From: an uncultured Gammaproteobacteria bacterium | GTDB taxonomy: Bacteria; Pseudomonadota; Gammaproteobacteria; CAWCPV01 | Length of the DNA: 64,000 bases | Assembly (NCBI GenBank): GCA_963797555.1 | Contig: CAWCPV010000004.1 | Span: 1 to 64,000, forward strand | Direction of reading: 5' to 3' | Shown here: positions 57,875 to 59,235 of the stretch, in pieces | How the letters are laid out: each line of letters begins with the position of its first letter | Position numbering within the stretch: position 1 is the stretch's first letter | The notes under the pieces: model-generated | What the model was told of the DNA's origin: nothing | The model's database searches: none | Seen by the model: the letters and a program-made list of their open reading frames with translations, nothing else | Position numbers and translations under genes: made by a program

Positions 57875-58997
57875 ATGATCGTTGTGCTGGACACGGACGT
57901 TATCGTCGCCGCTGTTGTCAGTTCCGACGGGGCATCCCGTTTCCTAGTGTGCCCGGCATGGGCCAAGACTTGTGACCTGAGAGGAGGTCACCGGAGAGAG
58001 TGACGACAACCGTAGTGAAGCGCAAGGGGGAAGCCGCGAGGCCAACCTGAAAGAAGCGCGGAGCAAAGGCACGAGCGCAGGAACACGAACAGGCAGTGAG
58101 GCCGGGTGCGGGCGATGAGCGTGCTAGGGAACGCGAAATCCAACGGTCACCGAAAGACGCATCAGGTAGAGCCTGGCGGCACGGGCCGAGAGTCTTGGCA
58201 CCTTACCCGGGGAGATCTCCCGAGTGAGAGCTTGGGAGAAGTCAGCAGAGGCCATATGAGCGAGGAGACCCTCTGCAATGGGGGGTGTGGAGCGAAGGGC
58301 CGAAGGACCGAGAGACAGGCTAGTCCGAGCAGACGCTGTGGTGACCGCGAAGTCGTCTGAAACCGAGGGCCGTTGCAACTGCGGCAGCCATCCCTTGGGC
58401 GGTGGAGCGAAAGATAGTGGAGCTATCGGACGCGAGACTGGAGGCGGCAAGGAAACCGTGGCGGAAGGAGGATGAATGAAAGCGCTGAATGAGAGCTTGA
58501 TGGAACGGGTAGTCTCCTGGTTCCATCGGATCTCGCGGCCGCCTGATGGCCGCCAGGTCCAACCGCCGGATGCGGAAAACCGCTTGTCCGGTGGTGTGGG
58601 AGGGGTGACGGGCGCAATCCCGTCACCTCGACCCGATCTTCGGGAGATCGGCCTCGGCCGCTTGGCCGCGGCAGCCTCGGTGCCGCTCCTGCTCGAGTAT
58701 GATGCCGTGCTGAAGCGTCCGGACACGCTGCGGCGCGCTGGCGGCACGGTGGAGGACATGGATGTGATCCTTGATCAGCTGGCCGCGACCCTGCAGCCAG
58801 TGCCGATTTGGTATCTGTGGCGACCGATGGTGCGTGACGCCAATGACGATATGGTGCTGGAGGCGGCGGCTAACGGCGCGGCGACGCATCTCGTGACGTT
58901 CAACATTCGCGATTTCGGGGAGGCGCCGCGCCGGTTCGGTGTTGAACTCTGCCGGCCCGCCGATCTGGCGAGGAGATTGCGCGATGGACAAGAGTAA
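57875..58997 (+). CDS. PIN-domain toxin split by a group II intron (exon 1 57875-57946, exon 2 58638-58997; 143 aa spliced)
   Basis: MIVVLDTDVIVAAVVSSDGASRFL joins in frame to LREIG...SVPLLLEY.AVL.R...WRP..RD.NDDMVLEAA.NG.A..LVTFN.RDF. Confidence 0.88.
57947..58637 (+). ncRNA. Group II intron, class C-like, with the RT ORF almost entirely deleted
   Basis: 5' GTGTGCCCGGCATGG; DV AACCGCCGGATGCGGAAAACCGCTTGTCCGGTGGT (CGC triad); DVI GTGACGGG-CGCAAT-CCCGTCAC...CCCGAT 3' end; RT remnant LMERVVS. Confidence 0.9.
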
Positions 58998-59235
58998 CTA
59001 CGCATTGAGTGCGCCGAAGAGCATCCTAGCGGCGGCGCGGCGCGCCGCCAAGCGAGACGGCGTGAGTCTCAACCAGTTCATCAACACCGCTTTGGCCGAG
59101 AAGGTTGCGGCACTGGAAGCCGAAGAGGTGTTCACGCGGCGAGCCGCCCGCGCCGACCGGGCGCGCTTCCTCGATGTGTTAGAGCGGCTCGGGGGTGAGC
59201 CCCCGCAGGCGGGGGACGAACTGGACGCCGGCTGA
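58984..59235 (+). CDS. Antitoxin-like RHH/HicB-type protein downstream of PIN
   Basis: Overlaps the PIN stop; NYAL..PKS....A...A..DGVSLNQFI..ALAEK. Confidence 0.82.
   Translation: MDKSNYALSAPKSILAAARRAAKRDGVSLNQFINTALAEKVAALEAEEVFTRRAARADRARFLDVLERLGGEPPQAGDELDAG

Follow-up and report, generated by a model that had tools for sequence, protein, structure and literature searches.

The DNA considered here (the window) spans the initial 64 kb of contig C4 in an assembly of an uncultured gammaproteobacterium that amounts to 5.35 Mb in 20 contigs and is 84.6% complete. Near the end of the window lies a gene for a toxin of the PIN family whose reading frame is split by a group II intron, followed by a smaller gene for a presumed antitoxin. 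Judged by its ribozyme and target features, the element is a class C-type, non-autonomous group II intron that has lost its intron-encoded protein (IEP), a reverse transcriptase (RT)/maturase, and it belongs to the kind called ORF-less for lack of that open reading frame (ORF). The principal features, with lengths in nucleotides (nt) or amino acids (aa), are as follows:

57875–57946, + strand: exon 1 of the PIN toxin gene, 24 codons, among them the one for the first conserved acidic residue, in LDTDV (from translation; the N-terminus is common to homologues)
57947–58637, + strand: ORF-less class C-type group II intron, 691 nt, GTGTG...CCCGAT
58638–58997, + strand: exon 2 of the PIN toxin gene, 119 codons plus stop; its first base, C, is intron-binding site 3 (IBS3) (from translation and PF13470)
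58984–59235, + strand: partner gene, 83 aa, presumed antitoxin, with its own GAGGAG 7 nt upstream (identified by homologues downstream of PIN genes elsewhere)

The two exons, joined by script from these coordinates, give a stop-free frame of 143 residues, and uninterrupted homologues read ...GASRFL-LREIG... continuously over the junction, so that the register of excision is exact. Exon 2 on its own matches the PIN_3 family (PF13470) with an E-value of 4.1e-9 and 37.7 bits, against a cut-off of 27, and a search of a protein collection returned 374 candidates, of which 172 are relatives at E ≤ 0.001; many of these relatives are 141–147 aa long and up to 92% identical. A close homologue, P0004, lies just over the cut-off of TIGR00305 ("putative toxin-antitoxin system toxin component, PIN family"), with 30.4 bits vs. 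29.15. The partner gene is an open frame that overlaps the stop end of the PIN gene by 14 nt. Its product falls below all family cut-offs (HicB, 19.5 bits vs. 21; YlcI/YnfO, 25.7 bits vs. 30), and its antitoxin role is presumed from conserved pairing, a homologue lying directly downstream in 79 of the 80 PIN loci from genome contigs that formed the comparison set. Gene order across this set indicates that PIN and partner are a conserved two-gene module, with the toxin first. In the set of genomes searched for relatives, the nearest belong to the same class, and none was of the same genus, family or order.

The intron can be divided, from its 5′ to its 3′ end, into the following parts:

57947–58300, + strand: ribozyme domains I–III (full-model matches to RF02001 and RF01998; family covariation)
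58301–58561, + strand: domain IV remnant with a Shine-Dalgarno sequence, the IEP start and the deletion joint (about 58508–58517)
58562–58595, + strand: domain V, 34 nt, with the CGC triad and a 2-nt bulge (RF00029 alignment; consensus fold of four copies)
58597–58635, + strand: domain VI, with unpaired GA; A58631, the seventh nt from the 3′ end, is the candidate branch point (consensus fold)

An Rfam scan matched RF02001 (group-II-D1D4-3) over its full model (1–170) at 58030–58201, with 81.5 bits and an E-value of 1e-14, and RF01998 (group-II-D1D4-1), again over the full model, at 58202–58300 with 40.3 bits; the start of domain IV at 58301 is placed solely by the end of the latter match. RF00029 (Intron_gpII), which covers domains V and VI, was absent from the whole-window scan at gathering cut-offs and appeared in a scan of the region only, at 58561–58637 (model 1–77), with an E-value of 3.5e-6 and 40.0 bits, exactly the gathering score, and its alignment extends to the final base of the insert. 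There the model consensus GAGCCGUAU is aligned to CCGCCGGAU, with G-AGC-CGUAU in the consensus opposite C-CGC-CGGAU in the intron, which identifies the domain V triad as CGC. A CGC in place of an AGC triad is the signature of class C (IIC) introns, of which B.h.I1, O.i.I1 and GsI-IIC are examples. The nucleotide at position −3 of the intron is G, the commonest base there in subgroup IIC according to passages of a published survey (Monachello et al., PMC4748821).

The integrity of the ribozyme was assessed from the structure shared by the family. A consensus fold of the first ~345 nt, computed with RNAalifold from 3 sequences of this genome and 13 of metagenomes (16 rows), has 84 consensus pairs, 26 of them with compensatory changes, and the copy at the PIN locus has a single non-canonical pair. 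The rows were drawn from a larger alignment of 45, many of which share just the 19-mer used as the query; 29 of the 45 were dropped because their coverage of the first 345 nt fell short of 320. Domains V and VI are identical in sequence across all four copies of the intron in the genome. What is left of the IEP amounts to ~11 N-terminal and ~10 C-terminal codons. Nothing in the sequence, then, speaks against catalytic competence of the ribozyme. The first-pass annotation of this DNA had described a 691-nt insert at 57947–58637 with domains V and VI, a 143-aa protein regained by its exact removal, an intact overlapping gene downstream, a class C element with a CGC triad, and a ribozyme kept while nearly all of the RT was lost, and these points are borne out by the matches and frames given above.

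Target choice and copies of the intron

The position of the intron within the PIN gene can be understood from the DNA that immediately precedes it and from the part of the ribozyme that pairs with it, through exon-binding site 1 (EBS1) and intron-binding site 1 (IBS1). In the target motif CCTA/C, as written below, the slash marks the point of insertion.

57927–57940, + strand: DNA hairpin in the coding sequence, ACGGG-GCAT-CCCGT, then TT (5-bp perfect stem, 4-nt loop, 2-nt gap)
57943–57946, + strand: IBS1, CCTA, the last four nt of the 5′ exon (the same four nt stand before all four genomic copies)
58125–58128, + strand: EBS1, UAGG, within the loop CUAGGGA at 58124–58130 (a terminal loop in the Rfam alignment; can pair with IBS1 CCUA)

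The hairpin is encoded by the D-G-A-S-R codons and the CCTA by the F-L codons of the toxin (codons 18–24 in all), and a 29-nt stretch there folds with −8.5 kcal/mol in RNAfold. The intron is repeated in this genome as four full ORF-less copies, on contigs C4 (the PIN locus), C3, C12 and C20, and as two fragments on C5. On C3 the copy follows GCGGC-TAAA-GCCGC, T and CCTA, whereas on C12 and C20 it follows GTCGGCG-GTCAA-CGCCGAC and CCTA directly, and in each case the 3′ exon begins with C, so that all four sites conform to a hairpin, 0–2 nt and CCTA/C. Sites of this kind, defined as a 5-bp perfect hairpin, a gap of 0–3 nt and CCTAC, number 240 across the genome.

The same rule emerges from relatives of the intron in metagenomes. 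The initial 19 bases of the intron, used as a query against metagenome contigs, matched at least 120 stretches, with 80 loci among the matches listed, and the metagenome counts in this text refer to those listed matches. Site statistics were taken from 71 distinct sites, each preceded by 30 nt or more of sequence. Of these, 45 end in CCTA and 32 have both CCTA and the hairpin; a perfect hairpin with a stem of 5 bp or more, placed 0–3 nt before the last four bases, occurs at 38 of the 71 sites vs. 22 of 405 random positions in the same loci. Every locatable 3′ exon of the family starts with C. The EBS1 loop could be read in 21 metagenome members; in 20 it is CUAGG(G/A)(A/G), with 16 of these 20 standing after CCTA, and in the remaining one (L173) a loop CUGGGAG is matched by the target CCCA, a compensatory EBS1/IBS1 change that amounts to one covariation. 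The insertion site in the PIN gene is thus fully explained by the ordinary hairpin + CCTA/C rule of the family. Among the 73 PIN loci of the comparison set that are contiguous over the site, none has CCTA/C at the intron position, although many form a hairpin there; the PIN gene of this genome became a target because of its own codon usage.

According to passages of the literature, class C introns insert at stem-loop motifs of the terminator or attC type (PMC4424553), and their EBS1 targets are too short to provide specificity (PMC4748821). A search for terminator-like sites on the + strand of the locus found none. The first-pass annotation had placed class C introns usually after stem-loops and outside genes, of which the former applies to this intron and the latter does not, its stem-loop lying within coding sequence. 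Two further observations concern the target hairpin. At one metagenome site (L155:557) copies of the intron stand head to tail, one copy having as its 5′ exon the 3′ end of another, domain VI hairpin included, and a contig from sequencing run X1 joins the 3′ end of the intron (58635) to its 5′ end (57945); domain VI itself seems, from these joints, to serve as a target hairpin.

The four copies differ little from one another. The C4 copy shows 3 substitutions in 655 aligned nt relative to that on C12, 8 relative to that on C20, and 34 in 689 relative to that on C3, almost all of the last within the first 350 nt. From this near-identity it follows that some RT/maturase mobilised the copies very recently. 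The C12 (28473–29128, − strand; L002) and C20 (121339–121994, + strand; L004) copies lie inside a duplicated segment that is ~99% identical, the contig ends being 98–99% identical over 7.4 kb and 5.7 kb, and both stand antisense in a queC-like frame that is itself decayed, with its N-terminal part gone and one frameshift. Both are also found just upstream of a carbonic-anhydrase-like ORF oriented like the intron. The C3 copy is intergenic, with no long frame spanning its site. The fragments on C5, for which Rfam gave no match, lie 62 kb apart: an isolated 5′ piece (225780–225878; L006), 91% identical, after which comes a short stretch of RT-like ORF, and a 3′ piece (288168–288334; L005), 88% identical. 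The genome at large (G000) is heavy in retroelements, with 19 matches to RVT_1, 8 to GIIM and 10 to Intron_gpII, and several of their frames are broken.

The intron family and its missing maturase

Full-length relatives of the intron, seven in number, were found in metagenomes. They measure 1857–1951 nt, and their longest ORFs encode 373–563 aa, four of them 410 aa. They are 82–90% identical to the intron in domains I–III and 86–99% in domains V–VI, and they align with it up to about intron position 461 and then again from about 574. Other metagenome relatives are ORF-less, with lengths of 669–805 nt, and three of these align end to end at 77–79% identity; the RT-less architecture is therefore old and widespread rather than a private deletion. 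In two marsh metagenomes, contigs carry the domain IV remnant at ~96% identity, and the deletion joint was placed at 58508/58517 because contig ends there run into RT-like sequence. In addition, run X15, an RNA sample of activated sludge representing another organism, contains a relative of the 5′ half of the intron, ~93% identical over 57945–58266 at a word depth of ~1489. A contig from this run joins 58266 to a point 57 nt before domain V, which suggests another variant with a short domain IV.

A full-length sister of the intron with its RT, which had been put forward as something to look for in this genome, was not detected by blastn at word size 7; the searches recovered the four ORF-less copies instead. 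Nor was a cognate maturase found in the assembly, at its completeness of 84.6%. Passages of a review describe ORF-less introns in bacteria as rare and nearly always found beside related IEPs, and most bacterial group II introns as lying outside housekeeping genes (Zimmerly and Semper, PMC4424553). A protein search with the 42-residue product predicted to run from the PIN start into the unspliced intron retrieved two metagenomic proteins that end in the intron-encoded 18-residue tail, namely a fragment of a YcjX-like ATPase (P0123), cut at profile position 39 of 443, and a protein with a Tle1-like phospholipase domain (P0124). Taken together with the antisense copies described above, these sense-oriented interruptions of other genes indicate that the intron family is one that enters genes in either orientation wherever its motif occurs.

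Expression of the interrupted gene and the readings considered

How the interrupted gene might be expressed depends on two further features:

57840–57867, + strand: promoter-like site (TTGACT, 16 nt, TATGCT), immediately before the PIN start codon (consensus match only)
58476–58997, + strand: fusion ORF of 173 aa, from the IEP-remnant start through domains V–VI in frame into exon 2 (from translation; protein P0003)

The promoter-like site is the sole sigma-70-like match in 57650–59400, where shuffled sequence gives a mean of 0.3, and with one such site and no + strand terminator the operon is probably transcribed through the intron. An alternative in-frame ATG at 57863, overlapped by the promoter-like site, would add 4 codons to the toxin, as in some homologues. 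The 173-aa frame opens at the Shine-Dalgarno sequence and ATG (58476) of the IEP remnant, and its entry into exon 2 has a one-in-three chance by phase; the C12 copy shows the same read-through out of the intron. Upstream of the module, and directly before the promoter-like site, the stretch 55712–57738 (+ strand) contains an ISL3-family transposase gene (DDE_Tnp_ISL3, 244 bits) and, after it, a partial second copy of the C-terminal half of this transposase (ORFs 56904–57878 and 57481–57738).

The mechanism that we propose starts from an RT-deleted intron, recently mobile by means of an RT supplied in trans, which would have retrohomed into the PIN toxin gene, codons 18–24 of which happen to offer the target of the family (a hairpin, 0–3 nt and CCTA/C). 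The event would have been neutral or mildly favourable, as it would disarm the toxin. Unspliced mRNA would yield a peptide of 42 residues that begins at the PIN start and ends inside the intron, and the 173-aa product, which is without the first strand and its conserved LDTDV, should be inactive, so that toxin output would be abolished or strongly reduced. The partner gene would stay expressed from its own ribosome-binding site. Full-length toxin is, by the reading frames, obtainable only from spliced RNA, and its restoration would need splicing, which in class C introns is normally maturase-dependent in vivo. In vitro, as passages on the subgroup have it, class C introns self-splice mostly by hydrolysis, and branching depends on the IEP (PMC4748821). 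Public sequencing runs contained at most 0.16 of the sampled words of the locus in any one run, and contigs assembled from runs X1, X2, X4 and X15 contain relatives of the intron and of the PIN and partner genes, none of which bridges exon 1 to exon 2 or spans the junctions of the locus.

The arrangement appears in no other locus of those compared. An intron in the PIN gene was seen in none of the 80 PIN loci, 73 of which are contiguous over the site; six loci that lack the N-terminus of PIN away from a contig end gave no Rfam group II match, and one further such locus lies at a contig end. No PIN gene was found near any of the 81 metagenome intron sites within 600 nt upstream and 3.5 kb downstream, and the protein search with the 42-residue junction peptide returned no PIN fusion. 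The same intron–PIN pairing, which the first-pass annotation had proposed to seek in related genomes, was thus seen in 0/80 PIN loci and at 0/81 intron sites. In a search of the literature that covered listings and passages only, no intron was reported from a toxin-antitoxin gene. Loss of the toxin by other routes is nonetheless on record, three PIN genes of the comparison set (L052, L055 and L059, from Thiocystis violacea, Thiohalocapsa halophila and Thiocapsa imhoffii) having lost 37–54 N-terminal residues while keeping a partner that is 80–93% identical to the partner here; toxin disarming is therefore common in the family.

Selection on the exons was considered through substitution rates. 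Against the nearest PIN genes for which DNA was at hand (L046, L047, L049 and L050), NG86 estimates give a synonymous rate (dS) of at least 1.0 and a ratio of non-synonymous to synonymous rates (dN/dS) of 0.04–0.12; the PIN gene's own branch carries 21 synonymous and 6 non-synonymous changes, and the sister branch 18 and 7. The dN/dS value was rejected as a test of selection on the exons, since the insertion is far younger than the distances compared: it shows long-term constraint on the family and says nothing on the time since insertion. That time is near zero, because the copies differ by just 0.5%, and with copies so nearly identical, intact exons are expected without selection.

We consider it probable, with reasonable though not full confidence, that the locus arose when a non-autonomous class C intron was recently inserted at its motif, most likely with the effect that the toxin is disabled or weakened, and we infer that the insertion is an accident of target choice and not an evolved regulatory device. 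Several observations weigh against this. The intron is sense-oriented and its ribozyme apparently fully intact, so that splicing is possible. The closest IEP in the genome, an intact protein of 444 aa with RVT_1 and GIIM only, is encoded on the same contig (C4:644317–645546), and a cognate IEP may lie in the unassembled part of the genome. The PIN protein retains all 26 invariant columns of the family, in an alignment where it is itself 1 of the 26 rows, and its lineage is without sign of decay (21:6), though this test is powerless over so short a time. Finally, two proteins of 120 aa, P0012 and P0037 (85% and 71% identical), known from the protein alone, start exactly at the exon-2 boundary and could point to recurrent insertion at the PIN hairpin.

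These observations can be carried further, to a module that works normally and an intron that is merely tolerated, being spliced in vivo by a maturase in trans, either the relative on the same contig or an unassembled cognate. This seems unlikely to us, though it has several points in its favour beyond the intact ribozyme and the sense orientation. For the copies to have moved so recently, a working RT/maturase must have been active in the lineage until very recently, and the 444-aa IEP sits in a full-length class C-type intron (L015; C4, ~644200–646100, − strand; 5′ end GTGTACGCCCGGCATGGGC) that has a CGC domain V and matches the same two Rfam D1–D4 models, which would make this IEP the closest protein that might serve as a maturase in trans. 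The intron keeps domain IV from its 5′ side as far as the start of the IEP; this portion is homologous to that of the full-length relatives and is conserved in the ORF-less relatives at 77–79%, and trans splicing by an IEP is documented, in a passage of the review cited above, for a cyanobacterium (PMC4424553). The 444-aa IEP is, however, the best that the assembly offers and is only 44–46% identical to the IEPs of the intron's own family, and the two introns have no nucleotide similarity detectable by blastn. Translation through an intron inside an ORF also tends to hinder its folding and splicing in bacteria.

The first-pass annotation had gone further still and suggested a selected switch, in which toxin would be made only with a maturase or under particular conditions, and the locus would sense the activity of introns or mobile elements. 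Toxin production is indeed necessarily conditional on splicing, the exons and partner gene are intact, and, as no cognate IEP was found in the assembly, an incoming autonomous intron would be the trigger. Yet the target rule fully accounts for the site, the sister copies disrupt or flank unrelated DNA, in part antisense and in part intergenic, the arrangement was found only at this locus among those searched, selection could not yet show in so young an insertion, and a co-expressed partner should neutralise any toxin made, all of which leaves the switch very improbable. The simpler explanation that the same annotation had held in reserve, a recent neutral knock-out, is the better supported, with 3 substitutions in 655 nt between the C4 and C12 copies. 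An origin of the whole arrangement in a repeat mis-join during assembly is conceivable for a multi-copy intron in a 20-contig draft of 84.6% completeness. Both junctions are, on the other hand, base-exact and restore the conserved protein register, the flanks obey the target rule on both sides (hairpin and CCTA, then C), and the PIN-locus copy has private differences from the other three, so that we give such an artefact next to no credence.

Relation to known introns and significance

Set beside class C introns as passages of the literature describe them (PMC4424553, PMC4748821), the intron in the PIN gene shares the CGC domain V, the small ribozyme, the G at −3, the very short IBS1 and the insertion just 3′ of a stem-loop. 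Its full-length relatives carry putative IEPs of ~410 aa, and the related IEP in the genome has just RVT_1 and GIIM domains. It departs from the usual class C intron in having lost its IEP, and in that its hairpin, which is without a T-run, belongs to a coding sequence instead of a terminator or attC site, with a gene interrupted in the sense orientation. ORF-less introns mobilised or spliced in trans are known from Thermosynechococcus; to our knowledge these are not of class C. With them the intron has in common a deleted RT, an intact ribozyme and several near-identical copies. Introns with related IEPs occur in this genome, but the cognate IEP is not in the assembly, the nearest being 44–46% identical, and a further difference is that the ORF-less lineage of the intron is old and widespread.

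Introns in protein-coding genes of bacteria have a well-known example in Ll.LtrB, which resides in the relaxase gene ltrB of Lactococcus and whose splicing has been shown. C.te.I1 of Clostridium tetani, according to a passage on it, is an ORF-less intron in a protein-coding gene (PMC4024640). The PIN locus resembles both as a bacterial group II intron in a protein gene whose product depends on splicing; unlike them, with their splicing shown and their arrangement conserved or functional, it is known from sequence, its arrangement is not conserved among the loci compared, and class C introns normally do not live in genes. As regards the host gene, the module is like others of the PIN_3/TIGR00305 type in that exon 2 belongs to PF13470 and the partner follows directly, and unlike them in that its toxin gene is split by an intron and its partner falls below the curated family cut-offs.

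The locus as it stands opens no new kind of regulation. The intron's choice of site is like that of any class C intron, and what is unusual is that the site is coding sequence and the orientation sense. An immediate consequence concerns annotation, the public protein set holding the 173-aa chimera (P0003) as a PIN_3 protein when it is an intron artefact. Proof of splicing would make the locus a convenient system in which to ask if a class C ribozyme within a translated ORF can be spliced in trans. It is a long shot that the old RT-less class C lineage consists of miniature non-autonomous retroelements that home to any suitable hairpin, also in coding sequence, and that the toxin here is conditional on a maturase in trans; if true, the arrival of an autonomous family member on a plasmid or phage would poison the cell or arrest its growth. 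Under the reading that we favour, a recent insertion with probable loss or weakening of the toxin, the locus provides a clean natural example of two things that reviews count as bacterial rarities, a proliferating ORF-less lineage and a class C intron sense-oriented in a protein gene. The class C target rule, a hairpin and 4–5 nt, is met here by coding sequence, and such introns can therefore inactivate genes.

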